Below, in pieces: positions 8,628 to 48,000 of a DNA stretch of 64,000 nucleotides. Below the pieces are notes generated by a model, which was not told the origin of the DNA, did not search any database, and saw only the letters and a list, made by a program, of their open reading frames with translations. Positions within the stretch are counted from its first letter, which is position 1. Every line of letters begins with the position of its first letter. Source of the DNA: a virus (lineage: Duplodnaviria > Heunggongvirae > Uroviricota > Caudoviricetes); the IMG/VR virus record IMGVR_UViG_3300028584_001240, one strand, 5' to 3'. The translations under genes and the position numbers were made by a program.

Positions 8628-9524
8628 TTAACGAATGCTTTCATTCGGGTGAGACATTGAAAAGAGTTTATCAATAGCCTTACCAATGGATGTTTCAAGA
8701 ACAGCGTCTAGACCGAACAAGCCAGCCAAACCACCACTTTTAGCCTTAACATCAGTATTCACCTGATACAGTTGGGCACCGTCTTTAAAAGCCTTCAAAA
8801 TAGCCGAGCGACTATCACCAATTTCATCAACAAGATGTTCCTTCAACACATCTTGTGCCATGTAAAAGTCACCTTCCATCAGCTTTTCAGGATTAATCAT
8901 AGGGCGATATTGCAATACATGGTTTTTGAACGCAGTGTGAATTTCAACCAGTTTTTGTTTGAAAATAGTTTCTTCGGCTTCACTTGGAAGTTTAGTAGGA
9001 ACCACAGAACGCTTATTGGTGCCTGCTGTGTAAACTCGAACATCAACACCGATTTTAGTCAGCACTTCTTCAAAGATAGGCACTTGCGAAACAACACCGA
9101 TAGAGCCAACAAAAGCAAACGGTTGAGCCACAATGCGATCACAGACCGAAGCCATCATATAACCACCACTGGCCGCGACTTCATCAACAAAACCAGTAAC
9201 CTTCAGACCGTGAGCACGAAGACGGTTGATTTGCTGAGCAGCATTCGCATAGGCGGTTACACTGCCACCGGGGCTTTTAATAATCATGTAGACAGCATCA
9301 CCACTTTTGGAGTTAAGGATAGTCATGTCCACATCACGTTCCAGTTTTTCAAACGCATTGCCTTTATCTTCGGCGTTAAAACGAAGAACAAAGATCTTAT
9401 TCAAATAAACGACATCTTTCGTTTTTGCTTTCAATTCACGTCGAACTTCACGACTCTCAATCTTTTTAATGAGTTCACGGTTCATATCTTTGATTTCTGT
9501 TTTAAAACGAATTTCTTTAGACAT
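8628..9524 (-). CDS. S49-family serine peptidase (SppA/SohB-like)
   Basis: 298 aa with a ClpP/crotonase-fold peptidase core (IIKSPGGSVTAYANAAQQI...VTGFVDEVAASGGYMMAS). Overall layout resembles SohB or short SppA. Confidence 0.7.
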   Translation of the reverse strand: MSKEIRFKTEIKDMNRELIKKIESREVRRELKAKTKDVVYLNKIFVLRFNAEDKGNAFEKLERDVDMTILNSKSGDAVYMIIKSPGGSVTAYANAAQQINRLRAHGLKVTGFVDEVAASGGYMMASVCDRIVAQPFAFVGSIGVVSQVPIFEEVLTKIGVDVRVYTAGTNKRSVVPTKLPSEAEETIFKQKLVEIHTAFKNHVLQYRPMINPEKLMEGDFYMAQDVLKEHLVDEIGDSRSAILKAFKDGAQLYQVNTDVKAKSGGLAGLFGLDAVLETSIGKAIDKLFSMSHPNESIR

Positions 9525-9963: not shown

Positions 9964-10569
9964 ATGAAAAAAATGTTAAACAAAGAAGCACTACTCCATA
10001 AAATAAAAGAAAAAAGTACAAAGTTTCTAGAAATAAAAAATCCGGGTGAATTAAATTGTACACCAGAAGGAAACGTTATTGATTTTAATAATATATCATA
10101 CATTAGATTACATAAAGGTCTTTTTATCATCAATAAACACACCGCCAAAAGCTTTTTTAACATTGCTTTTGAAGGTGAAGAAGACGAATATTTAGAAAAA
10201 ATTATCGAAATTTTTAATATATACGCTCATTTTGATTACTTTTTGTATACACCTAAAGACGATGGTTTTAATGTTTACAGCAAAGGTTTTGAAGCGAACT
10301 ATATAGAAAGGAAAATTAAAAAAGAACCTGAAATTGAACAAAAAGAAGGCGTATTTTATTCCAACCTTTGTAAAGAAATATCGCTTGGGCCAATGATGGA
10401 ATGTACATTAGGTATGAAAAATACAGCTTATAGTTATAAAGAGTTATATGAAAACGTCATCTATCCACAATTTCAAGAAATGCTGAAAGAAAGCATTGGA
10501 TTAGAAATTACGCACATGAGCCAGTTTGATGACCGGGCTTTTGAACTATTAAAGATGGCAAGAATTTAA
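9964..10569 (+). CDS. hypothetical protein, C-terminal tail family (ends ...RAFELLKMARI)
   Basis: 201 aa. Met at -4 and Ile at -1, as in the big family. Confidence 0.5.
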   Translation: MKKMLNKEALLHKIKEKSTKFLEIKNPGELNCTPEGNVIDFNNISYIRLHKGLFIINKHTAKSFFNIAFEGEEDEYLEKIIEIFNIYAHFDYFLYTPKDDGFNVYSKGFEANYIERKIKKEPEIEQKEGVFYSNLCKEISLGPMMECTLGMKNTAYSYKELYENVIYPQFQEMLKESIGLEITHMSQFDDRAFELLKMARI

Positions 10570-10930: not shown

Positions 10931-10934
10931 ATAA

Positions 10935-10970
10935 AAAAGGCACCTAAGATAATTAGAATGCCTTTTTTTT
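10935..10970. terminator. hairpin + T8 (aggca...tgcct tttttttt), bidirectional terminator candidate
   Basis: Read directly between convergent genes. Confidence 0.45.
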
Positions 10971-10981: not shown

Positions 10982-11791
10982 TTAAATAGCAGTCATCAAT
11001 AACAAATCTATTTTATCGGCAATATTTTCTTGTGGTATATCTAAAAATTCTTGATAAAATCCATTATGAAGATTACTCACATACATCATCAATATTTCAT
11101 CTGTAAAAACATCAATATCATGATCAGTAAAAAGGGTGCTGGCTTCTATAATATCTTCCAAGGTCACTAAGCCAGCTAAACTTTCTGGAAGTTTATATAC
11201 CTTTTTATCTGATAGGCTAAAATATAATGAAAAGGGTTGAGTATGATTAAAAAAACGGACTGTTGGAAATAAAGCTATCTTTCCATCGCGGGTTATTGAA
11301 AAGTTTCTAATGAATTCATATTGTCCAACATTTCTATAAGACCGACTAACACATGATGTTATACCATATTTATGGCTATCTTTTTCCAACATGTATGTTT
11401 TTGCAAAAGTATAAAATTCATGAGGCTTTATATCACTACTCAATTTCAATAATCTTGAGAAATTGGTGTTTTTTTGAAAAGAATTAAGAGCTTCATTGAT
11501 AAAATTAAAATCTTTTCTTGATGTTTTATGAATTTGAAACATTTGATTGAACTTGTCTAGATAAGAAAGATCTTTGAGACAAATTGAATGGAAAAGAGGT
11601 TGTCCCGGTGAAATACCGAAACTGAAAAATGGTTTATTTATATTAATGGGGTTCTTATGTTTTTTAAACAAAATATGAACTTGAGTGTCCATCATAGGAT
11701 ATTGTTCATATTCAAAAAATGTTGTTTTTGTTGTTTTGGTATTAAATGCCCCAGAAACAGCATTCCGAAAATTTTCCATAATAAGCTCCAA
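10982..11791 (-). CDS. C-terminal tail family protein (269 aa; ends ...DKIDLLLMTAI)
   Basis: ORF table. Tail motif with M at -4 and I at -1. Confidence 0.55.
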   Translation of the reverse strand: MELIMENFRNAVSGAFNTKTTKTTFFEYEQYPMMDTQVHILFKKHKNPININKPFFSFGISPGQPLFHSICLKDLSYLDKFNQMFQIHKTSRKDFNFINEALNSFQKNTNFSRLLKLSSDIKPHEFYTFAKTYMLEKDSHKYGITSCVSRSYRNVGQYEFIRNFSITRDGKIALFPTVRFFNHTQPFSLYFSLSDKKVYKLPESLAGLVTLEDIIEASTLFTDHDIDVFTDEILMMYVSNLHNGFYQEFLDIPQENIADKIDLLLMTAI

Positions 11792-11812
11792 AAATAATGA
11801 ATCATAATAACA

Positions 11813-12604
11813 TTATATACTATTCATTTCAACCAAGTTCATCATTTCAGCGTAATTAGAACAACTGTCAAAAATACTCTCAACCAGTTTCCTGTCGTTA
11901 AGGAGACTGTCAATATAGTAAAAGAAAATATCGTATGTCCAATTACTATCAATTGAAGTCTTTAAATCATTAATCTCAACACCATTATCGAACAATTGTT
12001 CAAAGGTCAATAAACACCTATCAGCATTGTTTCCACTAAACGTTGAAATATTCGCTGCTTTATTCAGTTCAGGCGATAGCAAAATTGAATAGGTCTTTTG
12101 TTTTAAAGAGATATCCAACACTAAGATTGGGCGAAATTTTCCAGAATTATCTAATACCATTCGCTTGTCATAAGAATAATAGAAGTTATGTCTTTTCGGT
12201 GAGTGATAAAGGTCTATATCTGATAATGTGCATGAATTATAAAACATATGCTCAACTCGCTGGTTAACAGTGACGACTCGATGAATGGATTTTAAATCAA
12301 AATCACCCTTGGTTTTAATCATATGAACAAGGGCATCATTCAAACAAAAAGATGAAAATGCTTTTTTGAGTAGCTTGTTTTCTTCTCGGGTATACATAAT
12401 ATCTGGAATACATGATAAATAGACATCTTCATTATAAAAAACTGAACGCGAAAGAACCTTCCCATGAAAATTTAACAAGGCGACTGGCTCATTGTTCTGA
12501 TGTGTTAATGAAAGTGTTGAACTGTTTAAAAATGTGGCCGAAACAAAATGACCATCAAAGGTTTTAGAAACAGCGTCAAGAAGCGTCTGGTTAATGTTTG
12601 ACAT
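11813..12604 (-). CDS. C-terminal tail family protein (263 aa; ends ...NLVEMNSI)
   Basis: ORF table. Tail motif. Confidence 0.55.
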   Translation of the reverse strand: MSNINQTLLDAVSKTFDGHFVSATFLNSSTLSLTHQNNEPVALLNFHGKVLSRSVFYNEDVYLSCIPDIMYTREENKLLKKAFSSFCLNDALVHMIKTKGDFDLKSIHRVVTVNQRVEHMFYNSCTLSDIDLYHSPKRHNFYYSYDKRMVLDNSGKFRPILVLDISLKQKTYSILLSPELNKAANISTFSGNNADRCLLTFEQLFDNGVEINDLKTSIDSNWTYDIFFYYIDSLLNDRKLVESIFDSCSNYAEMMNLVEMNSI

Positions 12605-12606
12605 TG

Positions 12607-13521
12607 TTAATACGTCAACATCTCAGTTACTTTCAATCGACCAATCAACTCGGATCTTGGTAAGGTCATCATTAATTTTTTCTCCTTCAATTTTAAGTTT
12701 TCAGCTCTACCAATAATATTGACCACACACTTTATGAATTTAGCATTAAATTTCTCAAATAGCTCATCAATAGAAGCTTCCATATTATCAGAAAACATAG
12801 GAACTGCATACTTAAATTTTAAAGTTGATAAGACAGGTAGGTTAAACAAAAACCCCGGCACGAATGCTCCTTTATCATCTCTCATCAATACAATTTCTAC
12901 TTTGGCCGGAGAAAATGAAAAGCTCGTTTGTTTTCTTGAGTTCTCAGTCTTTGAAAGATAACCATAATAAGATTTGCACAAACGTTGCTCTTTTGTATCT
13001 TTGTAAGTTTTAGTCTTCACAAAAAAATCTTTCAACTGTTGTGGAATAGCACTTTTTTCAAACTTTTCAAAGAATTCAAATTCATTAGTTTCTTTAATAT
13101 AACGATCAATAACCGTTTCCATAATGTAGGATGGAAAATCACGACTAGCCATCAACTGTTCAAATAAGGTGAGAACAACTTTACTTTTATCAATCTTATC
13201 ATTAAAAATTGAATAAACAGCTTGACCATCATACACATTGTTATAAACTCGTAAGTATTTATTATCAAAGGGCTTTGGCCCAGTCTCAAGGATAATTCTG
13301 AATCCATAAGTTTGATAGGGGTCATTAATTTCAATAGGATAAGTTTTAGGCCCATACTTATCAACCAGTATAGCTCTAATTTGTTTTATAAGTGGATCAT
13401 ATTCTTTCATAGCGGCCTCTTGTTTTTCTTTATTATCTTTTGTTGCTTGATTAAAAGTAGTCACTTTGACAGCACCACTGTTGATACTGCTAAGTAAGGC
13501 TGTTAGATCAATATTTTTCAT
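12607..13521 (-). CDS. C-terminal tail family protein (304 aa; ends ...LKVTEMLTY)
   Basis: ORF table. Tail motif. Confidence 0.55.
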   Translation of the reverse strand: MKNIDLTALLSSINSGAVKVTTFNQATKDNKEKQEAAMKEYDPLIKQIRAILVDKYGPKTYPIEINDPYQTYGFRIILETGPKPFDNKYLRVYNNVYDGQAVYSIFNDKIDKSKVVLTLFEQLMASRDFPSYIMETVIDRYIKETNEFEFFEKFEKSAIPQQLKDFFVKTKTYKDTKEQRLCKSYYGYLSKTENSRKQTSFSFSPAKVEIVLMRDDKGAFVPGFLFNLPVLSTLKFKYAVPMFSDNMEASIDELFEKFNAKFIKCVVNIIGRAENLKLKEKKLMMTLPRSELIGRLKVTEMLTY

Positions 13522-13536
13522 TATTAATATCCTATC

Positions 13537-14316
13537 TCAAATATGATGCATTGCAATGATGGAAAGGTGATCTTCAAAAGATTCCTTGTTAAGAGCTTTA
13601 AAGCCTGCTTCATCAATATCAAATAATTTTTTGAAAAGAGTTTGAACAATAGGATCGATTTCATTTTTGACTTTTGTCAAAAAGCCAGCAAGATTGTTCT
13701 GCATGGTGTGAGCACTAGACAAATGAATATCATGATCAATAGAACCAAACTTAATTTTAATATAAGGATACGAAGTAAATTGACCATCACGATATTGAAA
13801 CATCAGTTTAGTGGTCATCATGATCATTGAATTTTGAACTTTGTATAACTTAGCATTCAAAAAATGGTTTGAATAGCTTCTCATCGCATAAAAATAAGAA
13901 TGTGAGCTGTACGATCTAATGAAACCAAACTGTGATTTAAAGAGGTTCTTATCATGAAAATCTGAAGACTTTAATAAACTGTATTTGGTCGTAAAGTCTA
14001 AAAACCCCTTATTAAAATCTTTGATGAATGAATCAGCATCTTTATGCATAAGCATTTGAGATAGCTCATCAAGAAATGTTTCATTGATATCCGTTGAGAT
14101 GTGAATCGTCTTTTTATCTTGTCGATTAACATAGACATAAATAAATTTGTGCTCATTATTGACGCACACAGTAAATTTAATGACATCAGACTGACCCATA
14201 TCAACTTTATGTTTAATATTGGTTCCAATCACATCAAGATTAAATCTTTCTTTCAATAGATGACTAAAATCCTTCTTAATGACCAAAAGGTGATTGACTT
14301 CTTTTTTACTTGTCAT
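13537..14316 (-). CDS. C-terminal tail family protein (259 aa; ends ...LSIIAMHHI)
   Basis: ORF table. Tail motif. Confidence 0.55.
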   Translation of the reverse strand: MTSKKEVNHLLVIKKDFSHLLKERFNLDVIGTNIKHKVDMGQSDVIKFTVCVNNEHKFIYVYVNRQDKKTIHISTDINETFLDELSQMLMHKDADSFIKDFNKGFLDFTTKYSLLKSSDFHDKNLFKSQFGFIRSYSSHSYFYAMRSYSNHFLNAKLYKVQNSMIMMTTKLMFQYRDGQFTSYPYIKIKFGSIDHDIHLSSAHTMQNNLAGFLTKVKNEIDPIVQTLFKKLFDIDEAGFKALNKESFEDHLSIIAMHHI

Positions 14317-15125
14317 ACTTTTAACATCTCCAATACTTTAAAGTCATTAATCGAACCGTTAGCTTCACTGCTAATGCCAGCAACATTAAATTGATTGACA
14401 TAGAAAGTGTATAATTCAGGTGTTAGTTTATTCATGAAATCATTAATATAATCATTAAGTCCAACTAAGGTTGGGTTTTTATTAATAGCTACATTTCTAA
14501 CAATATCAACTGATGAAATAATGCTTATTGTTGTTGTGCTCAAATCCGGGTGCTCAGTATTTAATCTATAATGGTTAGTATCTAACAAATTAACAAACTG
14601 ACCAGAGTGTTCATCAATAAAGAATCGAGTTTTTCCAAATCCACGTAAATTGATACACAGATCAATAATGGGTTTAATTTTAAAATCTTCGGTCACCACA
14701 TAACCTAATTCGGTAAACAACATATTCCATGCATTCGTGTAATAGAACATAGGAGAGAGCGTTATTCTTTTTCCTACTATTTTCGACCTATTGAAAGTAT
14801 CAGCCTCAAAGAAAATAGGGTCTTTAAAAATAATTTTTGAAATCTCATGGTTAAACAAACTATCTGAAATCATTTGACACGTCTTAAAACTATCAAATTG
14901 TGTAAAAATAGAGTTGGCTGTCTCACGGAAATCAGGATCGGTTAATTTGTAGTAAGAAAATTTATGAGTTTCACTGTCATATCCAAAGTTAAGCACTTTA
15001 CTCATTGTCACATTGTTAAAAAGATAAAATGTCTGTTTGTCTTCATGAAAATCAAGAGAATAATCATCACCCAGTATTAAGCTGAATGCTTGTTTAATGC
15101 TATCAATGGTAGTGAATTCATTCAT
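14313..15125 (-). CDS. C-terminal tail family protein (270 aa; ends ...FKVLEMLKV)
   Basis: ORF table. 4-nt overlap with the downstream gene. Confidence 0.55.
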   Translation of the reverse strand: MNEFTTIDSIKQAFSLILGDDYSLDFHEDKQTFYLFNNVTMSKVLNFGYDSETHKFSYYKLTDPDFRETANSIFTQFDSFKTCQMISDSLFNHEISKIIFKDPIFFEADTFNRSKIVGKRITLSPMFYYTNAWNMLFTELGYVVTEDFKIKPIIDLCINLRGFGKTRFFIDEHSGQFVNLLDTNHYRLNTEHPDLSTTTISIISSVDIVRNVAINKNPTLVGLNDYINDFMNKLTPELYTFYVNQFNVAGISSEANGSINDFKVLEMLKV

Positions 15126-15886
15126 TAGATATTTTCCATAGTCATTAGTGTTAGATAACTTTTAATATCATCCTCAGAAAAACAGGTTATATCATCAAGA
15201 CAAAATTTTTCTGAAATAGTTGATGAAGCGTTTTTTAAAACAACAGCGTAAATGTTGCTGCACATTTTATTAACTCTATTCAAAAAGTCTTCGTCATCCT
15301 TTAAATCAAGAGAAATGGAATGAGCCGTAATAACAAATTGGATCATCTTACTAGATTTTAAAACGGAACCATCCAAATAGTAATAAGGTTTACTTTTAAG
15401 ACGTGCGTTCATGAAAGAAAATTCATTAAAATGGCTTTCAAATGAAATTTTACCTTGCAACATTTCTTTATGAATACAATATTTACTTTTTCTTTTTTTA
15501 TCATGGTAAATTTCACCCATAGGCTGAGCATTAAATTTAATATGCACTGAACCTACCTGAAATTCACTAAGAATGGCGTTGATAGAGTCTTTAATAAGAT
15601 GTAGTTGTTCATTTTCTTGTTTAGACATGAAAAACCAATAGAAGTCTCGAATCAGTCCGGGGTTGGCACTGGATTTAATAATAATTTCTTGAGTGTTGTG
15701 TAAATAATCTGCAGAAATAGAGTGCAATTTATTTTTTTCTGTTTTGTAGTAACAGGTAATAATAGATCCTGCTTGATCCGCATTGTCTTCAATAGAAAAA
15801 GAATCTAATTCACGAACTAAAACATCAACAATAAATTTTACAATATTGTTTTTAATAAACGTAGAATTGTCTAATAAAGTTGACAT
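15125..15886 (-). CDS. C-terminal tail family protein (253 aa; ends ...YLTLMTMENI)
   Basis: ORF table. GGAGA SD upstream. 1-nt overlap with the neighbour. Confidence 0.55.
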   Translation of the reverse strand: MSTLLDNSTFIKNNIVKFIVDVLVRELDSFSIEDNADQAGSIITCYYKTEKNKLHSISADYLHNTQEIIIKSSANPGLIRDFYWFFMSKQENEQLHLIKDSINAILSEFQVGSVHIKFNAQPMGEIYHDKKRKSKYCIHKEMLQGKISFESHFNEFSFMNARLKSKPYYYLDGSVLKSSKMIQFVITAHSISLDLKDDEDFLNRVNKMCSNIYAVVLKNASSTISEKFCLDDITCFSEDDIKSYLTLMTMENI

Positions 15887-15937
15887 GAATTAAATCTCCA
15901 AAATATGGCACAATTATACCATATTTTTAGGGTTAAA

Positions 15938-16771
15938 TCAATAAGCAGCCATTTCTGTTACAATGACATAATCAACAAGTTGTTGCATAGAGTATTCGGT
16001 AACTTCACCTAACGATTCATGGTCTTTAAGTCTAAGATTACGTTTAATGATATCATACAATTGGGAGCGAATACAGCGTTCATATTTATAAACTAACAAT
16101 TGAACGTCATCTTCACTAATACCTTTATTAGCATCCACCATAATAGTCAACTTAATATCAGCTAACAATGGGATGTTTAAAACATAAACAGGCAACAATT
16201 CACCTGTATAAGTAGACATATTTAAACTCATGGTACACACTGAATAGGCTGCTTTACTTTTTCTATTGCTAAATCGACGGCGTTGTTCAGCTTTACGACT
16301 ACGAGCTGAATAATAGAACATTGCCAAATGTTTTTTACTCGTTGATTTTCTTCGATGATTATCATCAGAAGTTAATGAATCAATGGATAAATCTTTTGGG
16401 TGATATTCCACAGAGTCAAACTGATTCCATTTTAACCCTGCTTCAAAAAACTTCTGAATAATAGCTTGAAGGTAGTTTTCATCCACAACAGGATCTTTAA
16501 AAAGTGTTGAATAAAGGTTCTTGTAGTCATCAATAGAACCATCCATGCCTACTTTTAAAAAGTTACCATTTTCACACGGTAACACGTAGGCATTAAGGAT
16601 GTTATAAGCACTCGATTTGTAACCTGTCTTTCTATTTTTAAAAATTGAAAAACCATCGTGTCCATAATCAACAGTGTATTGTTCAAAAGGGCGGTCCAAA
16701 CCATCTGACAGCACTGTTTTAGCATGATCTAACAGTGGCTGACAGATTTCTTTTGAATTGAGTTTAGACAC
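15938..16771 (-). CDS. C-terminal tail family protein (277 aa; ends ...VIVTEMAAY), GTG start directly abutting serS stop
   Basis: GTG at RC 16769-16771 with GGAG 8 nt upstream. serS TAA occupies 16772-16774. Confidence 0.55.
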   Translation of the reverse strand: MSKLNSKEICQPLLDHAKTVLSDGLDRPFEQYTVDYGHDGFSIFKNRKTGYKSSAYNILNAYVLPCENGNFLKVGMDGSIDDYKNLYSTLFKDPVVDENYLQAIIQKFFEAGLKWNQFDSVEYHPKDLSIDSLTSDDNHRRKSTSKKHLAMFYYSARSRKAEQRRRFSNRKSKAAYSVCTMSLNMSTYTGELLPVYVLNIPLLADIKLTIMVDANKGISEDDVQLLVYKYERCIRSQLYDIIKRNLRLKDHESLGEVTEYSMQQLVDYVIVTEMAAY

Positions 16772-18052
<1,281 letters not shown>

Positions 18053-18090
18053 TCAAATATTCGATATTCTAACACAGTAATACTATTTAT

Positions 18091-18855
18091 TCAATAGCGT
18101 TCGATAGCCAAAACTGGATAGTAACTCATAATCTCTTCGTTACTTAATGCATTTACTTGAGTATGCGTTAAATTATATAGACGAATAATTGTACCTAAAA
18201 TTTGTGTCTGATGGAGGTCATTAAATTGAGTGGCAAAAGTATGCATCTGCATTTTAACTAAACTATCCTGTTCACTTTTCTTCTGAAACCAAAAATCCAT
18301 ACCAAATGACATGAAGTGAAATTCATCATTAAGATAAAATTGATTATTCTCAAATATAAATTTAGCTATTTTATAAACCTTAAAAGTCTCAAAAGGTGTT
18401 GTAACTTCGGCATGAATAGTTTTATCCATCATGAGCGTTTTCCATGAACCAAATTTCAATATTCTTTTTGCAAAAGGTAAAACATTTATGTTTGAGATGA
18501 TTTTTAGTTGCTCGCTGTATTCACTTGCAGCCTTCATAAATAATGAAAAAGAATCTGTGCTTTGTTCACTGCAGTGTTTAATAAATTTATTATAAAGTGG
18601 CAAATATTTTTTGTTATCAATATCTAAGGTAATGTTATTTACTACATAATCACCTTTTTTAACATTATTATTGATAGTAAATCGAAAAATAGGCTTAGCT
18701 TTACTCGTATTGACATCTAAGCAACAAATTGTCCTACCACCAGTATACTGACCCAACCCAGTGCGGGTATGGAAAATAACAGAGCCTTTCATATTTTTTT
18801 CAAAGAAAGGTCTTAACTCTGAGATCATTGCTTGACATAATTCATTATCGTTCAT
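18091..18855 (-). CDS. C-terminal tail family protein, subfamily A paralog 1 (254 aa; ends ...SYYPVLAIERY)
   Basis: Shares PKFIFENNxFYL and SYYPVL blocks with the next two genes. Confidence 0.6.
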   Translation of the reverse strand: MNDNELCQAMISELRPFFEKNMKGSVIFHTRTGLGQYTGGRTICCLDVNTSKAKPIFRFTINNNVKKGDYVVNNITLDIDNKKYLPLYNKFIKHCSEQSTDSFSLFMKAASEYSEQLKIISNINVLPFAKRILKFGSWKTLMMDKTIHAEVTTPFETFKVYKIAKFIFENNQFYLNDEFHFMSFGMDFWFQKKSEQDSLVKMQMHTFATQFNDLHQTQILGTIIRLYNLTHTQVNALSNEEIMSYYPVLAIERY

Positions 18856-18873
18856 TTTTTGTGTTTCCTATCA

Positions 18874-19632
18874 TTAATAACGTTCCATTGACAATACTGG
18901 GTAATAAGACTGGAACTGTTTATCAGTCCAAAGACCAAACTCAGTAAAAGGCACATCATACAGTTCATTAATTTTTGAAGTAATAATTTCATAGTGATCT
19001 TCATAAAATTTATGAGCAAATTCTTTAACTTCAACCTTCATGACATCTACGTCTTCTGTTTTTTGAGCAAACGTATAGTGTTGACCTAGTGAAGTAAAAC
19101 TAAACTTATCATGTAAATAAAATTTATTATTTTCAAAAATAAATTTAGGTGTCTTATGAATGTTGATAACTTCAAAAGGAGTTGTCATAATGGCATGGAC
19201 AGCAAGATCCACTCTAATATAGTCACCATCTGCAATCAACTTTCTTTCCTCAAATGGCAATACATCAATAGCAGTTATTAATTTTAAATGATCAGTCTGT
19301 TTAAGTGTTTCATTCATAAACAAATTAAATGAATTAGAACTGTATTGGCTACACACAGCTATGAATTTATTCAATATGTTTAAATGTTTTTCATCGTGGA
19401 CTTTTATTTCGATAGATTTAAACTTTTGATCATAGATCCTTCTGTCTTTCATAATAATAAAAGATAATAAAAGTTGTCCGGTAGAGGACTGCATATGTAA
19501 AATATCCAAAGAAATACCATTAGGCTTAGTATTATTTAATGAAGCCTTAAACATAACAGGATAATTAAGATGTCGAGCCGCAAACAAGCTTAAAACTGAT
19601 TTCATACTCTCAACCAGTTGTTCTGTTGTCAT
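18874..19632 (-). CDS. C-terminal tail family protein, subfamily A paralog 2 (252 aa; ends ...SYYPVLSMERY)
   Basis: Paralog by eye. Confidence 0.6.
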   Translation of the reverse strand: MTTEQLVESMKSVLSLFAARHLNYPVMFKASLNNTKPNGISLDILHMQSSTGQLLLSFIIMKDRRIYDQKFKSIEIKVHDEKHLNILNKFIAVCSQYSSNSFNLFMNETLKQTDHLKLITAIDVLPFEERKLIADGDYIRVDLAVHAIMTTPFEVINIHKTPKFIFENNKFYLHDKFSFTSLGQHYTFAQKTEDVDVMKVEVKEFAHKFYEDHYEIITSKINELYDVPFTEFGLWTDKQFQSYYPVLSMERY

Positions 19633-20385
19633 TTAACAAACCTCCATCGCTAATACAGGGTAATAAGACATCAATAATTCTGGCGACCAATTAGAAACTT
19701 CATCAACAGGTGTATTATAGAGTTCACTCAATGCAGTAGTTATATAGAGAAAACATTTATTATAGAATAAATCGGCAAACTTTGAAACGTAATCATTAAT
19801 ATATTTTTCATTATTTTCTGTTCTTTTCATGAACTTAAAATTACCAACTTCCGAAGAAAATACAAATTCAGGATTAATATAGAATTTATTTTTTTCAAAG
19901 ATAAATCTAGGTCTTTGTTCTATTTCAATAGTTTCAAAGGCTGTTTCAAGGTTTGCATAAATTTGTGGATCGATAACACCATGCAATTTTGATGAATACT
20001 GAATAGTGCTGGAATCTTGTAGTATATTGACAGCTTTGATAAATTTCAAATGATTGCTTTGTCTAATCATAGCGTCCACAAATAATGAAAATGAATTAAA
20101 CCCATCAACACAATATTCCTTTACAAACAAATTATAGATGCCTAAATATTTTTGGTCACCAATCACTATATTAATTGAATGTCTTTTAGCCTCATTTGTC
20201 GATTCAAGAATAAAACTGAAAATAATGCTTCCTGATGCAGTGAGGACACGAACATCAGGAAAAAGATTATGACTGCCAACATTACCATTAGTCCGTTTCT
20301 GGAAAAAGACAGGTTCGAGCACATTATCTTTAAAAAATGGCTTTATTTTGGCTATAATTGAATCACATAAATCATTTATATTCAT
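19633..20385 (-). CDS. C-terminal tail family protein, subfamily A paralog 3 (250 aa; ends ...SYYPVLAMEVC)
   Basis: Paralog by eye. Abuts the previous gene and overlaps the next by 4 nt. Confidence 0.6.
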   Translation of the reverse strand: MNINDLCDSIIAKIKPFFKDNVLEPVFFQKRTNGNVGSHNLFPDVRVLTASGSIIFSFILESTNEAKRHSINIVIGDQKYLGIYNLFVKEYCVDGFNSFSLFVDAMIRQSNHLKFIKAVNILQDSSTIQYSSKLHGVIDPQIYANLETAFETIEIEQRPRFIFEKNKFYINPEFVFSSEVGNFKFMKRTENNEKYINDYVSKFADLFYNKCFLYITTALSELYNTPVDEVSNWSPELLMSYYPVLAMEVC

Positions 20386-21119
20386 ATTTTGTGCATCTCT
20401 AATAGTTGAACATATCGAACAATATCTTCATCTAATACTTCTTTTGGATCAAGCGTTATTTTTAAATTCTGCCGAATCCTATTAATAATAGATGATCTTG
20501 ATAAATTATAAAGACCTTTCTCTAAATCCTCATAATAAGATGGATGGTTATCCAATAATTGTGGGTGAGAACTGATGATTTTGTCAGAGAAATGAACAGA
20601 GCAATTTAATCGAAGGTCAAGATATAACTCTTTATTGTAAATAGTAAATACGCAATCATGTCGAATAGTTGTTAAGCCTAATACAGACGTGAACTTTGCC
20701 ACATTAGTTCCTGACAATTTATTAAAATCATTAACTCGGTTCACCCGATCAGATGTAAAAAGGTTAAAGATATTGTCTTCTGATTCGAGTTTGGTCATTT
20801 TGAATAATGATAATTGTTCATGTATGTTTTCAAACATTTTAATAATACGAGCATAGTGAGAATCAACTCGTTTAGCTTTCTTAACCATTTCACGTAAGTA
20901 AAGCTCACCTTCACCATCATAATGGTAAACGTTTAAGATAGGCAAGATGCCTTGTCTATCATTGATATAAATAATAAGTAAGTGTTGTTTCTTGTTGCCA
21001 GTATAAATACTCACTGTAAAAACTGGATTCACAGCCGGTACTTCTTCGACAACAACATCTACACTGAAATGTTCTTTAAAGAATTTAGTAAATACTGGAA
21101 TGATTAACTTTTTCAACAT
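20382..21119 (-). CDS. C-terminal tail family protein (245 aa; ends ...VQLLEMHKI)
   Basis: ORF table. Tail motif. Confidence 0.55.
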   Translation of the reverse strand: MLKKLIIPVFTKFFKEHFSVDVVVEEVPAVNPVFTVSIYTGNKKQHLLIIYINDRQGILPILNVYHYDGEGELYLREMVKKAKRVDSHYARIIKMFENIHEQLSLFKMTKLESEDNIFNLFTSDRVNRVNDFNKLSGTNVAKFTSVLGLTTIRHDCVFTIYNKELYLDLRLNCSVHFSDKIISSHPQLLDNHPSYYEDLEKGLYNLSRSSIINRIRQNLKITLDPKEVLDEDIVRYVQLLEMHKI

Positions 21120-21142
21120 ATCTGTAACTCCATCATTAAATT

Positions 21143-21952
21143 TTAAATTTTTGACATATCAATAACATCAATATAACTATCAAACAGTTCTTTACTAATA
21201 GTTTTAAGATCAATGTCCATATCCAAAAATTTTTTTCCAATACGATCTTTAAAGCTGTCATAAAAATAAGTGTAAAACATTCCCACTGATAATACCTCAG
21301 TTATACTGCTATTGGGGGAATGGACTAAAATAGGCGTTTCACCATTGTTATAAAATAAGAACGGACTTTGATCAAGAAACAATACCTTTGTCTGGAATGT
21401 AGCTGTAAACTCGCCATCGTCAAAGGATTGAGGAATACCACCTTTCAAATCAATTTTCTTAGTTTTAATAATCTTAGCGACAACTGGATTATAGGTAACA
21501 TTTTGAATGGCTACGTTAAACTTCTTATTAACAACAGAAGTATCCATATGGGAAAGCATAGAACTTGGTTTAAATTCTACATCACCCGTTTTGATAAATA
21601 AACCTACATCCAAACCTGCCTGAACATAGCTGTCATGAATCGCCTTCATGTAATTAAAATTAGTATTAAAGATTTTATCAAGGTAACGAAGCATACGAGC
21701 CGTCTTTTCTTCATCATCTTGTGTATTAAACGAAAAATGAAGTTCATAAGACTTAGAGTGACTGTTATTTTCCTTGGCAGTTTCTTCGATATAAAGAATA
21801 TCACCATTTTTATTAGGGATGCTCAACACGGAGAAAAATTTACGATCAAAAAATTTCGATTCACTGACTGATTTATCTTTATAGACAAAGCCTTCCGCAA
21901 ACAACTTGGCGGAATAATTTGAAGCAAATTGTTCTATAAATAGATTGTCCAT
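21143..21952 (-). CDS. C-terminal tail family protein (269 aa; ends ...YIDVIDMSKI)
   Basis: ORF table. Tail motif. Confidence 0.55.
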   Translation of the reverse strand: MDNLFIEQFASNYSAKLFAEGFVYKDKSVSESKFFDRKFFSVLSIPNKNGDILYIEETAKENNSHSKSYELHFSFNTQDDEEKTARMLRYLDKIFNTNFNYMKAIHDSYVQAGLDVGLFIKTGDVEFKPSSMLSHMDTSVVNKKFNVAIQNVTYNPVVAKIIKTKKIDLKGGIPQSFDDGEFTATFQTKVLFLDQSPFLFYNNGETPILVHSPNSSITEVLSVGMFYTYFYDSFKDRIGKKFLDMDIDLKTISKELFDSYIDVIDMSKI

Positions 21953-22005
21953 AGGATCTCCAATGAAAGATGACCCATTATATCATAAAAACATGTAAAA
22001 ATAAA

Positions 22006-22749
22006 TCAAATTTTAATCATTTTATAGACATTGATTGCTTTTTTAATAAATTCTTCCGATTCATGCATTAAAGAAATCTCTGTCTCTTTAAATATTTCAT
22101 TGTTAATTCTGTTCACAATGATTTTAAAGAATAACGATTCAAGTTCATGTTCTGCATAATCAACACCACAATAAGAGTATACATCATCATTATTATTAAA
22201 AATAAAATAATCATTATCAAAAGAATAGTAAGTTTTAGTGCTATAAAATACTTCACCATCGCTTGTAACATTAATGACATAATTATTTAATCGAAAGATT
22301 TTCTGACCACCCACTGTCTTTTTCATACTAGGTAAAACTTGGAAGAGCTTGTTATTAAACCGGGCATTGTATAAATTATCAGAAGCTGATTTCGTAAAAT
22401 CATCAATAGCGTCAACCACTTCACAGATCCCAAGATGTTCACAAATTTCTTTTTGAATAGCGTCTAGAATTTCATGTTTATGCGAGTTGAATGGAAAAAA
22501 AGATAGCTCTCTGTTTAAAATAACGGTTTTATTTTTTTCATTAATTTTCAATTGATCACAGCGATGAATGTCAACCAACAAACGTAAAGGCCGTTCATTA
22601 AAGAATGTAAATGTTAAAACATAATCGTCAGAAATCATTTTTAGCACAGAAATACTGGGAGAATGAGTAACCTTATGTACAGAATAGCCACCCAAACAAA
22701 AATCAGTGTGGTAACGCTCTAAAAATTTATTAATAATTACTTCTAACAT
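22006..22749 (-). CDS. C-terminal tail family protein (247 aa; ends ...INVYKMIKI)
   Basis: ORF table. Tail motif. Confidence 0.55.
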   Translation of the reverse strand: MLEVIINKFLERYHTDFCLGGYSVHKVTHSPSISVLKMISDDYVLTFTFFNERPLRLLVDIHRCDQLKINEKNKTVILNRELSFFPFNSHKHEILDAIQKEICEHLGICEVVDAIDDFTKSASDNLYNARFNNKLFQVLPSMKKTVGGQKIFRLNNYVINVTSDGEVFYSTKTYYSFDNDYFIFNNNDDVYSYCGVDYAEHELESLFFKIIVNRINNEIFKETEISLMHESEEFIKKAINVYKMIKI

Positions 22750-22758
22750 GTAATATCC

Positions 22759-23538
22759 TTAAATAGTCAGCATTTCTAATAATTGTATTTGTTCTTGATA
22801 TTTGTTATCAAAGTCAATGTCAAAATCAATATTTTTAAAACTTCTGTTGATATTTTTACGAATGGCACGTCTTCTTTTAACTGAAATATAATTTAAAAGC
22901 TGTTCTTTGTTCATATAGTGTTCATCAACTGAATAATGTTCATCAACATTATTAAATTTGATAGCAATAACGTCCCTATCAGAAAAGATGATGTCAATAT
23001 TATAGTTAACAATGATGTTCATATCAGTATCAAAACCTAAATGTTTACCAATAACGGTATTCATTTTAACTCGTCTATTTATTTTTTTATAAAAATCTTT
23101 ATATCCAATTTCGTAAATCAATTTATTAGTATTAAAGAAATCATGACAAGAATCCGAAATGGCATTGAACCGTTTAAATGATTGAATGGAGTCTAGTTGT
23201 TCATCATCAGTTTTAATAAAATCAAATATCTCAAAAACTCTTTTATATTCAATAGTAATAAAAGGTGCAGCCTTCAAAAAATCACGATAAATAGGCTGCT
23301 CTGGTGTTTTTAATGTAGCTAATTGAATTTTTATAGTGCTAGTGTGTGGGATAATTTCAAAAATATAGCAAGTCTCATCATTAAGATGAAAAGAGACATT
23401 AGACGAACCACTCGTATTGTAGCCATATTTCATTTCACTATCTGGCTTATTTTGGGAAATAATAGAGCCATACTTTTCAATAAACAAAGCAGTCAATCGA
23501 ACGAGTTCAGCATGTGTATTGCTCATATTACACCTCAA
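22759..23538 (-). CDS. C-terminal tail family protein (259 aa; ends ...IQLLEMLTI)
   Basis: ORF table. The start may be the internal Met MSNTH. Confidence 0.55.
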   Translation of the reverse strand: MRCNMSNTHAELVRLTALFIEKYGSIISQNKPDSEMKYGYNTSGSSNVSFHLNDETCYIFEIIPHTSTIKIQLATLKTPEQPIYRDFLKAAPFITIEYKRVFEIFDFIKTDDEQLDSIQSFKRFNAISDSCHDFFNTNKLIYEIGYKDFYKKINRRVKMNTVIGKHLGFDTDMNIIVNYNIDIIFSDRDVIAIKFNNVDEHYSVDEHYMNKEQLLNYISVKRRRAIRKNINRSFKNIDFDIDFDNKYQEQIQLLEMLTI

Positions 23539-24142
23539 TCATATCACAAAGAGACACATGAGAACGAATCGTTTCATCAGGCAATTCAAAAAAGAACTTC
23601 TTAGTCATCCCAACATTAGTTTTTTTGTTAACAATATAATGAAGAGAACCCATTGTTTCGACATAAAACAAATTAAGAAGTTCTTCCATAGTAACTTTTT
23701 TATGACTTTCGTTAACCTCACTAGGATGGCGGTAAGTGAGCCAAATATCACCCGTATCCAAATCAAACCAGAGATCTTTTTTATTCATTAGGTGGACCGG
23801 CCAGCAAAGGCGAAGAAAGTTACCAGAATAGATGTTTTTTATCCCCTCTTCTCGGGCTTCAAATTCTGTGTCGAAGCGATAATAGATAATCGAAGTTTTA
23901 GCGACTTTACCACTACTGGACTTACGACGATACGCTGTGCTGTATGTAATTCGTTCAAAATTATTGGATTGAGATTTCATGTAAGTGAATGTTGCTTCAA
24001 AACCATTCTCCATAACACGTCTCATAAAGCTTTCCACTGAAAAGCCAACATCCTGAAAAGCTCCAAGGTCAACACTCTTTTGAAATGCAGACTGAATAAA
24101 GGTCTTTACAGTAGTGAAATCAAATGAATTTAAATCTCTCAT
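23528..24142 (-). CDS. C-terminal tail family protein (204 aa; ends ...VSLCDMIEV)
   Basis: ORF table. Tail motif. Confidence 0.5.
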   Translation of the reverse strand: MRDLNSFDFTTVKTFIQSAFQKSVDLGAFQDVGFSVESFMRRVMENGFEATFTYMKSQSNNFERITYSTAYRRKSSSGKVAKTSIIYYRFDTEFEAREEGIKNIYSGNFLRLCWPVHLMNKKDLWFDLDTGDIWLTYRHPSEVNESHKKVTMEELLNLFYVETMGSLHYIVNKKTNVGMTKKFFFELPDETIRSHVSLCDMIEV

Positions 24143-24253
24143 GGTGATATAGCTCCAAAAAATGATGTCCCATCATAACATATTGGGTCATTTTGAGCAA
24201 GAAATAAAAAAGGCAACCGTTTTTGGCTGCCTATGGTATTTAAGTGGTTAAAA

Positions 24254-24409
24254 TCAATAACCGAGTGCTTTTTCTCGTAGCTGTTCGAAACGATCCCATG
24301 CTTGTTCTTTCGATACCCGTGGTGCAAATTTGGCTTCATGCTGTTTCCATGCCAGCTCAATTTCACGTTCTTTGCGTTCAGTTTTGGTGTTCACTACAAT
24401 TTTAGCCAT
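24254..24409 (-). CDS. small hypothetical protein (~51 aa, MAKIVVNTKTERKEREIELAWKQHEAKFAPRVSKEQAWDRFEQLREKALGY)
   Basis: Manual translation. GAGGAT SD upstream. Locally higher GC. Below the 60-aa cutoff of the ORF track. The overlapping 75-aa table ORF (24139..24366) is probably spurious. Confidence 0.45.
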   Translation of the reverse strand: MAKIVVNTKTERKEREIELAWKQHEAKFAPRVSKEQAWDRFEQLREKALGY

Positions 24410-24584: not shown

Positions 24585-26729
24585 ATGCATATCAATCCTA
24601 AGTTTTACAAAGTGCTTGAAGAACTGTGTTTGAAACAACAAGGTTATCACTATCATGGTTATAATTCAAGTTTCGATAGAGACTATGGGGCATTTGTTTA
24701 TTTAGACGATCTAGCGGACACTTGTAGATATGAAGCATTTAAAAAATATAATTTATCTGATATTCGTAATGATAATGATTTTAAACTGTGTTTAGGTTTA
24801 GAATTCCTAGATATGGATTTATCCATGCTCAGTATGACCAATAGAAAACTTGAAATGTGTAATTACATGGATTTTGACAGTGAGTCTCGACAATTCATGC
24901 CATCCATGATGAAAAGAAACAAAGATTTCTCAAAAGAAGAAATTATAAAAACATTTGAATACAAACTGATGAATTTTGAAAGTTCTATACAAATGAGCTA
25001 TCATGCGATCAGAGAAACATTTATGGTTCGAAATTTTTTAAATTGCACACCACTGGTAGATGAATGGTTGTCGTTTGCAAAGAAACATAATGTATCCATT
25101 GACAGTGAAATGGCACCTGTCCTTGAGTTTTTAGAAAAAGATAAGGATAGCTTTAAAATCTATCAGCAATTGATGTCTGATTTTAGTGATATTAGAAATA
25201 ATTCGATAGGGTTTATCAAGAAATCTCACAGTATCATGAGAGAGATTTATTACAACAAACCACACCACGGATTTGAAGGCTTTATTAATCCACACTATGG
25301 AATGAATTCAAACGACAATCGAATGACTGGTGAGCAATATGTTGTAGATAAGGAAATTATCAATGAGGTAGACACGCTTCAAGAAAAAATTGATTTTTTG
25401 AAAAATAACATCAAAAAGGCTATTAGTTCTGTTAAAAACGATGAATATGATGAAGTCGAAATTAGAAACAATAATAAAGTATTAGTCACTGCAATCTATT
25501 CAGCCTATAAGAAACTGAAAGATAAAATTGCTCTACCTGTAACAAAAGCAAAGTTTTTCAGTGAAGATGTAACGCTTTTGACACCTAATAAAATATGTGA
25601 CGAACATGCTATTGAGACTTTTTTAGAAAAAAGAACGAAAGATGTTATGTTGATTGCTGAGAATATTTCTCATCAAAATATCCATTATAAAAAAGTAATC
25701 GTTTTTGAAGATAAAAGTTTAGCTGTTTTGGTGGATGGTCAAGAACGATTTGAAGTTTTTGTTGATATTAATGAAACCAAACACCTTGTAAAAGCAGCAA
25801 TGGTTGGTTACTTGAAACACATGCTTAGAAAAAACCCAACAATTGCCAAGGTTATCAGCAATGCATTTGAAAGTAATATTAACAAAATAAATGAGAGTAC
25901 TGAGCGGTATCATGATAGACCATTCCAGCTCAATAAAATTATGGTATCTATTGATACTTATTTCAAAAATGAAAACATTTTAAAATCCTTGAAATTTGAT
26001 TTCATTGAAACTTGCAAAAAATTATCTTCATTTGAAAAAATTGATGACAAGATGCATAAATTAATTCGTGAACATAAAATTAAAAAATACGCTGAAAGCA
26101 TTGTGAGTAGCAAGTATAAACATTTGTATAATGCTCAAAGTTATAAGTTATTTAAGGAACTCTATGATTTAGGGATCGATTTGAAGATTGTTCAAGAAAT
26201 GATTGGTAAAAAGTTGGCGGCTGTTGAAACTGAAAAAATGTTTAATGAACATATTAAAAGTTTAATCAATAGTTTTAATGATTTTGATATGGAATCCATT
26301 AAAATTAAAGCTTCATCTAACAAAGTAAACGTTATTTCAGATACTGATAATATTCTTATTCTTGAAATCTCTAACTTTGAGCAATCTAAGAAATTAGGAA
26401 GCGGTTCTTGGTGCATTAGTCGAAACAAGACGTATTTTGACCAATATGTTGAAAGAGATGGAAAGCAATATTTCATTTATGATTTCAATCAAACATCAAA
26501 AAGTGTTAAATCACTGGTGGGCATCACTTTAACAAGTACAAAAACGGTAAAAGCGGCTCATAGTAAAAGTGATGGACATTTTAGCGACAAGAAGATGATT
26601 GATTATCTCATTGAGAAGGTGACGAAACTAGAAGAACAAGTCAAACCAAAAGTGACTGCAGTTAGAAAGACTAGAAAGAAAAAAGAAATTGATGGTGTCG
26701 ATATTACTCATTTAACCATTGGCTTCTAA
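24585..26729 (+). CDS. large hypothetical protein (714 aa), paralog of 5898..7892 (shared C-terminal SWCI/YFIYD domain)
   Basis: ORF table, compared by eye. Followed by a terminator and three tandem small membrane-protein genes. Confidence 0.6.
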   Translation: MHINPKFYKVLEELCLKQQGYHYHGYNSSFDRDYGAFVYLDDLADTCRYEAFKKYNLSDIRNDNDFKLCLGLEFLDMDLSMLSMTNRKLEMCNYMDFDSESRQFMPSMMKRNKDFSKEEIIKTFEYKLMNFESSIQMSYHAIRETFMVRNFLNCTPLVDEWLSFAKKHNVSIDSEMAPVLEFLEKDKDSFKIYQQLMSDFSDIRNNSIGFIKKSHSIMREIYYNKPHHGFEGFINPHYGMNSNDNRMTGEQYVVDKEIINEVDTLQEKIDFLKNNIKKAISSVKNDEYDEVEIRNNNKVLVTAIYSAYKKLKDKIALPVTKAKFFSEDVTLLTPNKICDEHAIETFLEKRTKDVMLIAENISHQNIHYKKVIVFEDKSLAVLVDGQERFEVFVDINETKHLVKAAMVGYLKHMLRKNPTIAKVISNAFESNINKINESTERYHDRPFQLNKIMVSIDTYFKNENILKSLKFDFIETCKKLSSFEKIDDKMHKLIREHKIKKYAESIVSSKYKHLYNAQSYKLFKELYDLGIDLKIVQEMIGKKLAAVETEKMFNEHIKSLINSFNDFDMESIKIKASSNKVNVISDTDNILILEISNFEQSKKLGSGSWCISRNKTYFDQYVERDGKQYFIYDFNQTSKSVKSLVGITLTSTKTVKAAHSKSDGHFSDKKMIDYLIEKVTKLEEQVKPKVTAVRKTRKKKEIDGVDITHLTIGF

Positions 26730-26740: not shown

Positions 26741-26766
26741 AAAAAAGACACTTCGGTGTCTTTTTT
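26741..26766 (+). terminator. intrinsic terminator (gacac-ttcg-gtgtc + T6)
   Basis: aaaaaagacacttcggtgtctttttt read directly. Confidence 0.65.
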
Positions 26767-26876: not shown

Positions 26877-27317
26877 ATGAACACGCAGGATCAATCAATA
26901 TTAACTACAATTTATAGAATATTTATAGGACTCACAATCTGTGGGCCAATCATGGCATTATTCATTTCACTGCCCTTTGGACTACCAGTGGTGTTAACAA
27001 TCGCTCTAATAGCCAACTTAATAATGTCTATGAAATATTACAACGAACTGGTTCGCTCATCTTTTGATAGAGAGATTAGAAAATTACTTCATTTTTTTAC
27101 GACATCAATTACTATTTTGTTTCTAACATCCATACCTGCTTTAATAACTTCATACACTGTTGTAAATGACATGACTGCGACGATGGATATGATTGCTGTG
27201 GTTATTAAATTTATAGGATCTATCGTTGCATGGGGATATTACTTAGTTGTTTTGATAAAGGAATATCATCAATTTGAAAAAATGAAAAATAAAAAAAATA
27301 ATATATTTATAGCTTGA
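26877..27317 (+). CDS. small multi-pass membrane protein, paralog 1 of 3 (146 aa, ~4 predicted TM segments, KYY motif)
   Basis: Hydrophobic segments read from the ORF translation. Related to the next two ORFs. Confidence 0.55.
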   Translation: MNTQDQSILTTIYRIFIGLTICGPIMALFISLPFGLPVVLTIALIANLIMSMKYYNELVRSSFDREIRKLLHFFTTSITILFLTSIPALITSYTVVNDMTATMDMIAVVIKFIGSIVAWGYYLVVLIKEYHQFEKMKNKKNNIFIA

Positions 27318-27334
27318 AAACAACAATAATATTT

Positions 27335-30274: not shown

Positions 30275-30275
30275 T

Positions 30276-47991: not shown

Positions 47992-48000
47992 AAAAAGCCC

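Follow-up and report, generated by a model that had tools for sequence, protein, structure and literature searches.

Positions 10982-24142 of a 64,000-nucleotide (nt; 64 kb) stretch of viral DNA (IMG/VR record IMGVR_UViG_3300028584_001240; this whole stretch is hereafter the window) hold 15 minus-strand open reading frames (ORFs) of 204-304 amino acids (aa), taken from the ORF list, together with serS, which encodes a bacterial-type seryl-tRNA synthetase (SerRS). Nearly all of the 15 encoded proteins end in the same short C-terminal motif, here called the tail. Related contigs used for comparison are labelled L001, L005, L009, L011, L092, L094, L110, L111, L193 and so on, and "four lineages" denotes the window with L011, L001 and L009. 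Gene calls in related contigs (L005 and L011 for g2) led to two start corrections, with g2 beginning at ATG 23526 instead of TTG 23538 and g15 at ATG 11779 instead of TTG 11791. After these corrections, adjacent genes are separated by -4, -4, -1, 0, 0, 1, 2, 9, 15, 18, 23, 33, 47, 51 and 53 nt. The original prediction described 15 tightly spaced, co-directional genes with serS inside the array and its stop codon directly abutting the GTG start of the next gene; both features are present, with spacing of -4 to +53 nt and the abutting codons at 16774-16769. Gene order in the array is kept in at least seven related metagenomic contigs. The genes, in transcriptional order, are as follows.

23528-24142, minus strand: g1, 204 aa, tail ...CDMIEV; orthologs are 82-94% identical with the tail kept, and the ratio of nonsynonymous to synonymous substitution rates (dN/dS) is 0.09-0.13
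22759-23526, minus strand: g2, 255 aa, ATG start (TTG 23538 probably unused), tail ...LEMLTI
22006-22749, minus strand: g3, 247 aa, tail ...YKMIKI; weakly similar to g1 (shuffle z = 5.9)
21143-21952, minus strand: g4, 269 aa, tail ...IDMSKI; a conserved TGATATAAT box lies upstream at 21977-21985
20382-21119, minus strand: g5, 245 aa, tail ...LEMHKI; structure predicted
19633-20385, minus strand: g6A, 250 aa, subfamily A, tail ...AMEVC
18874-19632, minus strand: g7A, 252 aa, subfamily A, tail ...SMERY; structure predicted
18091-18855, minus strand: g8A, 254 aa, subfamily A, variant tail ...AIERY (Ile at -4; the L001 ortholog has Met)
16772-18043, minus strand: serS, bacterial-type seryl-tRNA synthetase, 423 aa, without the tail
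15938-16771, minus strand: g9, 277 aa, GTG start, tail ...TEMAAY; paralog of g13
15125-15886, minus strand: g10, 253 aa, tail ...TMENI
14313-15125, minus strand: g11, 270 aa, tail ...LEMLKV
13537-14316, minus strand: g12, 259 aa, tail ...AMHHI
12607-13521, minus strand: g13, 304 aa, tail ...TEMLTY; paralog of g9
11813-12604, minus strand: g14, 263 aa, tail ...VEMNSI
10982-11779, minus strand: g15, 265 aa, ATG start, tail ...LLMTAI; a TG-extended -10 box lies upstream at 11804-11812

The tail follows the consensus [LVI](-7)-hydrophobic(-6)-x-M(-4)-x-x-[I/Y/V](-1)-COOH. Fourteen of the 15 array genes end in M-x-x-[IVYC], the exception being g8A with Ile at -4. Across the window the tail is carried by 34 of 75 ORFs, compared to 0.86 expected from composition. 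Position -7 of these 34 tails is always L, V or I, position -6 is mainly hydrophobic, position -10 is often Tyr, and the final residue is Ile in 23, Tyr in six and Val in three. When the window is compared with L009, the most divergent of the close relatives, the final eight residues of orthologs are 77% identical and the protein bodies 57%; all 14 pairs (100%) have the same residue at position -4, and position -1 is conserved in 93%. Tail codons vary at synonymous positions and the DNA downstream of the stop codons has no conservation, so the tail is a protein-level signal. A DNA-level cause for it (a promoter, terminator or recombination site at the gene end) was rejected for the same reason, and an integron-like cassette array was rejected because no nucleotide element is shared at or after the stop codons. 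In unrelated IMG/VR loci the motif ends 4 of 788 ORFs (0.5%), and for serS neighbourhoods in bacteria and other huge phages the figure is zero to one per ~20 ORFs; the background in controls is 0.5-1%. It is present on 7 of 23 ORFs in the distant relative L094 (SerRS 74% identical) and on 4 of 13 ORFs in L193, a further distant relative and an IMG/VR contig from the metagenome of L092.

None of the recognisable enzymes of the window carries the tail, and the tail-bearing proteins match no Pfam, PHROG, NCBIfam or PADLOC family. The sole Pfam signal on a tail gene is a sub-threshold match to Imm42 (E = 0.0076) outside the array. With that match and with PADLOC defence families matching 0 of the 15 array proteins, an anti-phage defence or polymorphic-toxin immunity array was discarded as a candidate. 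A T4-type prohead-protease site (L-x-E followed by cleavage) at positions -7 to -5 was also discarded, because Glu occupies -5 in 13 of 34 tails only.

Outside the array, 20 further ORFs on both strands carry the tail, including several paralog clusters with their own tail flavours (...KMYYY, ...RMICI and ...EMMYI). Example ORFs or clusters lie on the plus strand at 9964-10569, 34601-35494 and 43886-45405, and on the minus strand at 28800-31013, 37256-38095, 39337-39999, 47371-50142, 50929-53618, 57004-57822 and 60913-64000. ORF 7876-8574 has the motif plus a four-residue extension (...LKMYNIGENM). Some tails (e.g., ...REREVIRMICI) may resemble sigma-70 region 4.1 or LuxR helix 1, a likeness that is not relied on here.

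Relatedness among the 15 proteins is detectable by sequence within a few small groups. BLASTP links only g6A, g7A and g8A (31-33% identity), which hhalign of ortholog alignments joins at a probability of 100%; hhalign also pairs g9 with g13 (E = 2.5e-5). With tails removed, shuffled-sequence comparison gives z = 10.2 for g9/g13 and a weak z = 5.9 for g1/g3. The nearly invariant positions in a MAFFT alignment of all 15 are the start Met and the tail Met only. The family of 15 proposed earlier is therefore supported by sequence for g6A/g7A/g8A, g9/g13 and weakly for g1/g3, and fails for the rest; clustering beyond the tail, absent by sequence for most members, is recovered only through predicted topology and only for g5 and g7A. 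No sequence similarity is detectable between these two proteins, and their AlphaFold2 models (mean predicted local distance difference test score, pLDDT, of 89.3 for g5 and 82.8 for g7A) have the same order of elements: an N-terminal helix, a 4-strand sheet, two helices, a 6-9-strand sheet, a long helix, a ~10-residue linker and a short tail helix. In the g5 model the linker spans residues 220-229 and the tail helix 230-242. Neither model has a convincing structural match in the PDB or among viral structures, and PDB sequence profiles return nothing for the tail-bearing proteins. An exhaustive HMMER search with the g5 profile against 1.84 billion representative proteins recovered three clusters, all g5 orthologs, and searches with a family member against deposited phages (megablast), GTDB representative genomes and IMG/VR found no close relatives. 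From the models, the 15 members probably belong to one extremely diverged structural superfamily, which about half of the window genes, including the other paralog clusters on both strands, would join.

The serS gene is assigned to NCBIfam TIGR00414 at 482 bits (cutoff 302). SerRS is 89-93% identical among close relatives, where the family genes span 37-96%. Against 185,579 GTDB representative genomes its identity is 47-54%, spread roughly evenly over several phyla, with the best match (54%) in Moraxella. At its 3' end serS meets g9 without a spacer:

16769-16781, minus strand: serS/g9 junction, with GGAG (16781-16778), 6 nt, TAA (16774-16772) and GTG (16771-16769)

The GGAG Shine-Dalgarno sequence of g9 sits within the last serS codons. 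The TAA|GTG layout is identical in four lineages, serS and g9 also abut in L092, L110 and L111, and in L094 the two genes overlap by 11 nt. As a promoter would not fit into this junction and g9 takes its Shine-Dalgarno sequence from within serS, the natural reading is that serS is co-transcribed with at least g9. With genes that abut or overlap in every relative examined and an internal Shine-Dalgarno sequence, as expected of translational coupling, serS-g9 is very probably a co-transcribed, translationally coupled pair. Its downstream partner is the most conserved member of the array (g9 orthologs 96/90/71% identical, dN/dS 0.06-0.07). All relatives, even at 74% SerRS identity, have serS at this place in the array, so there is no sign of recent insertion. 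A variable patch is present in the N-terminal part of serS (17820-17940).

Five promoter-like, sigma-70-type extended -10 boxes, each with a plausible -35 box, are found 22-29 nt before g1, g4, serS, g10 and g15. One lies ahead of g1 and the others sit in the four longest spacers. L011, L001 and L009 retain all five, including in places where the neighbouring genes share ~50% identity, and the element before serS hardly varies among them. The g1, serS and g10 elements and the two terminators that bound the array are as follows.

24172-24200, minus strand: g1 promoter-like element, TTGCTC, 17 nt, TGtTATGAT, 29 nt before the ATG; conserved in L011, L001 and L009
18066-18094, minus strand: serS promoter-like element, TTGAAT, 17 nt, TGtTAGAAT (TG-extended), 22 nt before the ATG
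15913-15941, minus strand: g10 promoter-like element, TTGATT, 17 nt, TGGTATAAT; the -10 box is kept in four lineages
24211-24232, minus strand: predicted upstream intrinsic terminator that closes the unit of a 51-aa ORF and bounds the array; -14.5 kcal/mol, z = -4.0
10933-10968, bidirectional: predicted downstream intrinsic terminator after g15 that bounds the array; -13.9 kcal/mol, z = -4.1

The sequence TGNTATAAT occurs 21 times in the window compared to 7.6 expected; the 12 intergenic copies all face a start codon 13-37 nt downstream, one of them that of the DNA ligase gene. A hairpin over the g9/g10 spacer (-12.7 kcal/mol) is not conserved in L001 or L009. The stem of the upstream terminator is conserved among relatives and its loop is variable. 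The downstream terminator belongs to a stereotyped AAAGGCAC...GTGCCTTT family with four further copies in the window, and a different hairpin takes its place in L001. No strong terminator was found inside the array, where the matches returned by the scan are weak and within coding sequence; read-through between units is therefore likely.

Judged by these signals, the array is not a single promoter-to-terminator operon. It would comprise five or more tandem units (g1-g3, g4-g8A, serS-g9, g10-g14 and g15) expressed from host-type promoters. The earlier claim that serS is co-transcribed with the family very probably holds for g9, through the conserved junction, and fails for one 13 kb operon, given the five conserved promoter-like boxes. 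Of the two features that the original prediction named as refuting it, a promoter and a terminator belonging to serS alone, serS has a promoter-like element and lacks a terminator.

Two side observations concern the terminators. The palindromic element AAAAGGCAC-(4-5 nt)-GTGCCTTTTTT recurs behind several genes, at 26743-26766, 27335-27358, 28304-28327, 34101-34124 and 10933-10968, and its bidirectional A-run/T-run design suggests one reused module. Between the array and a divergent 714-aa gene lies a conserved 51-aa ORF (24254-24409, minus strand; MAKIVVNTKTERKEREIELAWKQ...), which has its own terminator and a near-consensus, TG-extended promoter (TTGACA-17-TATATT). It is called at the matching position in L001, L002, L005, L009, L011, L092, L110 and L111.

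With dN/dS of 0.06-0.30 over all 15 genes (0.09-0.13 for serS), these are real protein-coding genes under purifying selection, and in the sequence searches each of them is lineage-restricted. Three genes stand out from relatives that are otherwise ~92% identical. The g2 body has 71% nt identity to L011 and the g11 body 74-77%, compared to ~92% for their neighbours, and g15 in L001 is 48% identical in aa and 58% in nt. The divergent blocks (22860-23520 in g2, 14400-15120 in g11 and 10982-11779 in g15) begin abruptly close to where the genes start and stop shortly ahead of the sequence that codes for the tail. Gene-sized divergent blocks with sharp edges near gene borders point to cassette-like allele exchange by recombination.

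The original prediction also described 18091-20385, which holds subfamily A, as a clear recent triplication. This dating does not survive comparison: g6A, g7A and g8A are 30-37% identical by global alignment, and a neighbour-joining tree places each of them with its positional orthologs, in three deep clades, so the duplications are old. The g6A gene is present in the window, L005, L011 and L092 and is missing as a precise whole gene from L001, L009, L110 and L111. Windowed identity has no chimeric signature, so the idea that L001 and L009 arrived at two copies through a chimeric deletion was rejected. On this sequence comparison, relatives differ in copy number through a cassette-like loss or gain and not through recent amplification.

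The window has ~32% guanine plus cytosine (GC) and 90% coding density. A Pfam domain is found in only ~16% of ORFs, and ~85% of sampled genes are orphans. An Rfam scan of the window returned two tRNAs and nothing else. Genes for NAD-dependent ligase, NUDIX, SPFH and Bax1-I proteins are present, along with the following features.

46149-47327, plus strand: TyrRS, bacterial-type
2134-3408, minus strand: ThrRS with catalytic and anticodon-binding domains only, without the N-terminal editing domains
38149-38349, minus strand: tRNA-Lys(UUU) and tRNA-Pro(UGG)
8628-9524, minus strand: SohB/S49-type protease, soluble, without an N-terminal membrane segment; in a PHROG class with head-maturation proteases

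The S49 gene is found right outside the array in each of the relatives, L094 among them. Large paralogs flank the region (664 aa at 5898-7892, minus strand; 714 aa at 24585-26729, plus strand) and are 35% identical over their C-terminal ~340 aa with an invariant ...SWCIS...QYFIYD... block. The 714-aa gene adjoins g1, the 664-aa gene lies ~3 kb past g15 beyond the S49 gene, and neither matches Pfam, PHROG or the PDB. A related 604 kb contig (L115 1317-20017, 26% GC) has a cluster of nine ORFs of 500-670 aa; seven of the nine (583-672 aa) have 26-36% pairwise identity, and one is a match to the 664/714-aa family. Probing of distant parts of the giant contigs, with this flanking family and then with a terminator motif, recovered nearby loci, the L115 cluster as one additional paralog array, and L193. 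Three tandem tail-less paralogs of 142-175 aa lie at 26877-28300 (plus strand), where relatives have two to five similar-sized genes, and form a further small family beside the array that changes quickly.

Megablast of the window against deposited phages gave no close match. A relative is a 437 kb contig listed as viral in IMG/VR, which supports the reading of a huge phage. The array lies on contigs of 1,843,594 bp (L001; ENA ERZ27281805 k141_522346) and 1,859,102 bp (L110; JGI 3300031134 Ga0308158_10000001), which are independent assemblies. Other contigs of the lineage measure 604, 520, 437 and 391 kb (the last being L092). Among window proteins, a PHROG "portal protein" family matches weakly (E = 1.9e-9, member not assigned) and a "tail protein" family matches at E = 1.5e-4.

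In T4 early clusters, small genes that are not essential lie densely packed in one direction, served by several sigma-70 early promoters and few terminators. The array is like them in its co-directional genes, start/stop overlaps, several host-type promoters, border-only terminators and mostly orphan content. It differs from them in its larger proteins (~250 aa), their common C-terminal motif, the fold common to the two tested, the embedded and coupled tRNA synthetase, and a genome many times larger than that of T4. A second T4 parallel concerns gp43, gp55 and gp33, whose interchangeable C-terminal tails bind the gp45 sliding clamp (PMC2988020); the gp43 C-terminus reads ...EEKASLDFLFG. Like the array tail, these are short hydrophobic/acidic epitopes at the extreme C-terminus, behind a variable linker, on otherwise unrelated proteins. 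The patterns differ, with (S/T)LDFL(F/Y) in T4 and [LVI]-h-x-M-x-x-[IYV] in the array, and T4 clamp tails occur on three replication/transcription proteins whereas the array tail is on ~45% of ORFs. Its carriers are all orphans, none recognisable as polymerase or sigma-like, unlike those of T4, and no sliding clamp was recognised in the window. Given the different pattern and the ~45% share of ORFs, the claim is limited to the array tail working like the T4 tails, not to membership of that class.

Jumbo-phage and giant-virus gene families resemble the array in tandem paralogs, fast divergence, gene-sized gain or loss and allele exchange. Known expansions of this kind are usually of recognisable families, such as ankyrin repeats and BTB domains, whereas the array members are united by a motif on the scale of a terminal tetrapeptide and have no relatives detected outside the lineage. 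Huge phages encode aminoacyl-tRNA synthetases (Al-Shayeb et al. 2020, PMC7162821), and the window, like their genomes, has bacterial-type synthetases and tRNA genes scattered among orphans; other IMG/VR contigs of 415-561 kb also carry serS. The conserved zero-spacer coupling of serS to one orphan gene (g9) is, by contrast, lineage-specific. Synthetases among orphan genes are nothing out of the ordinary in huge phage-like genomes; what is unusual is the proteome-scale C-terminal motif, along with the size of the contigs.

The reading that we prefer, at a probability of about 0.5, is that these are early-type accessory genes of a giant phage-like genome, which carry a common C-terminal docking tag and are arranged in units with host-type promoters, with serS and g9 as a bicistron. 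The region would be an accessory-gene block, and the uncultured phage-like genome around it would be very large and rely on bacterial expression signals. The array would be expressed early from host-type sigma-70 extended -10 promoters, in a manner resembling T4 early-gene clusters, and serS would be an ordinary bacterial-type synthetase with its own promoter in a bicistron with g9. The shared ending, with one predicted fold in the two proteins modelled, suggests a common docking or sorting tag. The fixed distance to the C-terminus, the near-invariant Met, the hydrophobic helical face, the variable linker and the otherwise dissimilar carriers are typical of C-terminal recognition motifs. The active part of the proposed docking motif may be one hydrophobic face of the terminal helix with the free carboxylate, which would tie a large, fast-diverging protein set to one common receptor for possible tethering, sorting, packaging or turnover. 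A bolder version is possible, if doubtful: the tail may be a proteome-scale C-terminal address tag of a new kind, on about half of the proteins of a ~1.85 Mb, ~85%-orphan genome that has bacterial-type signals and is neither a known bacterium nor of known phage size, and may bring hundreds of two-lobed, fast-evolving proteins to a single receptor for packaging, export, compartment targeting or turnover.

Several points weigh against the docking-tag, phage-like reading. By the sequence methods used, homology among most members is undetectable: all hhalign pairs other than those given above have a probability <7%, and tail-tail pairs in bulk are barely above controls (mean shuffle z 0.26 vs 0.12, p = 0.003). 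The models cover two of the 15 members, g5 and g7A, and the comparison of their folds is one of secondary-structure order and shared weak neighbours. Promoters and read-through are sequence predictions. Known phage genomes reach ~735 kb (PMC7162821), which makes contigs of 1.84-1.86 Mb 2.5 times as large as the largest described, and the window protein scans recognised no capsid or terminase in 64 kb; the phage identity is putative. Finally, the tail helix of g5 has a pLDDT of ~87 and could thus pack on the domain as a structural element instead of being free.

This last point is also part of the case for a rather doubtful alternative, in which the tail is simply the best-conserved structural element, a core-packing C-terminal helix, of one ancient, fast-diverging fold and the array an ordinary paralog expansion. 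The fold shared by the g5 and g7A models fits this alternative, as does the placement of the conserved positions -1, -4, -7/-8 and -10 on one helical face, as in a core-packing helix. A buried site would normally accept L, I, V or M, however, yet Met occupies -4 in 14 of 15 genes and does not change in any of the 14 pairs with L009. Every protein ends three residues past this position across sequence-unrelated subfamilies of 188-304 aa, and a fixed distance to a free C-terminus is a hallmark of C-terminal recognition motifs. Confidence in the g7A tail is low (53-70), and a variable ~10-residue linker precedes the tail helix, which also count against core packing. An early-removal role seems very unlikely: the tail would be a degradation tag for timed removal of early proteins by a protease that reads C-termini, such as host ClpXP or the soluble SohB/S49-like protease, whose gene lies ~1.5 kb past the downstream terminator. 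The ssrA and MuA degrons are C-terminal with a nonpolar end, and the motif here is likewise strictly C-terminal with a nonpolar last residue; tail genes sit behind host-type, early-looking promoters, and the S49 gene stays beside the array even in L094. No evidence ties S49/SohB to recognition of a C-terminal tag, though, and PHROG groups the protein with head-maturation proteases. The motif is unlike known ClpX C-motifs, and Glu at -5, needed for T4-type L-x-E cleavage, is confined to the 13 of 34 tails noted above.

The contig sizes bring in a different kind of organism. An unusual bacterium of ~1.85 Mb, in which the tail proteins are an exported effector arsenal and the tail is a C-terminal secretion signal, is unlikely, although two independent contigs of 1,843,594 and 1,859,102 bp speak for a cell, the sigma-70 promoters, Shine-Dalgarno sequences and intrinsic terminators are all bacterial, and housekeeping-type genes are scattered singly among orphans. 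C-terminal signals are typical of ATPase-coupled secretion, an acidic stretch often lies ahead of the tail helix, and parallels may be drawn with type I signals (a C-terminal helix with a terminal four-residue motif), type IV signals and type VII signals of the L-x-x-x-M-x-F type. Set against this, a family member has no GTDB representative match and SerRS comes no closer than 47-54% to any of the 185,579 genomes; the share of ORFs with Pfam domains (~16%) is far under that of any known bacterium; ThrRS without N-terminal domains, a SohB-like protease without its anchor and a LigA below the NCBIfam cutoff are typical viral copies; and a relative is classed as viral in IMG/VR. The 64 kb window showed no secretion-system gene, and ~45% of genes as exported effectors would be unprecedented. 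The arrangement first proposed for this locus, one 13 kb operon of a cargo-like family with serS inserted and a recent local triplication, is highly improbable. In its favour, the 16 genes are co-directional with short spacers and no detected internal terminator, but five conserved promoter-like boxes, one of them for serS, divide it; the A paralogs, at 30-37% identity, fall in three deep clades; and serS has the same position in every relative with no trace of recent insertion.

Should the tail prove to be a docking or sorting tag, a simple rule (M-x-x-[I/Y/V]-stop behind an amphipathic helix) would sort hundreds of unclassifiable proteins into one class, and it would offer an experimental handle, as the hub could be found by tail-peptide pull-down. 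The coupling of serS to g9 makes this gene, with its paralog g13, the first candidate for a link to translation, and both have Arg/Lys-rich segments. The 1.84-1.86 Mb contigs are of note because they may represent a very large genome, phage-like or of some other, unclassified kind. The array also illustrates how far a protein family may diverge while keeping its fold and its terminal motif.

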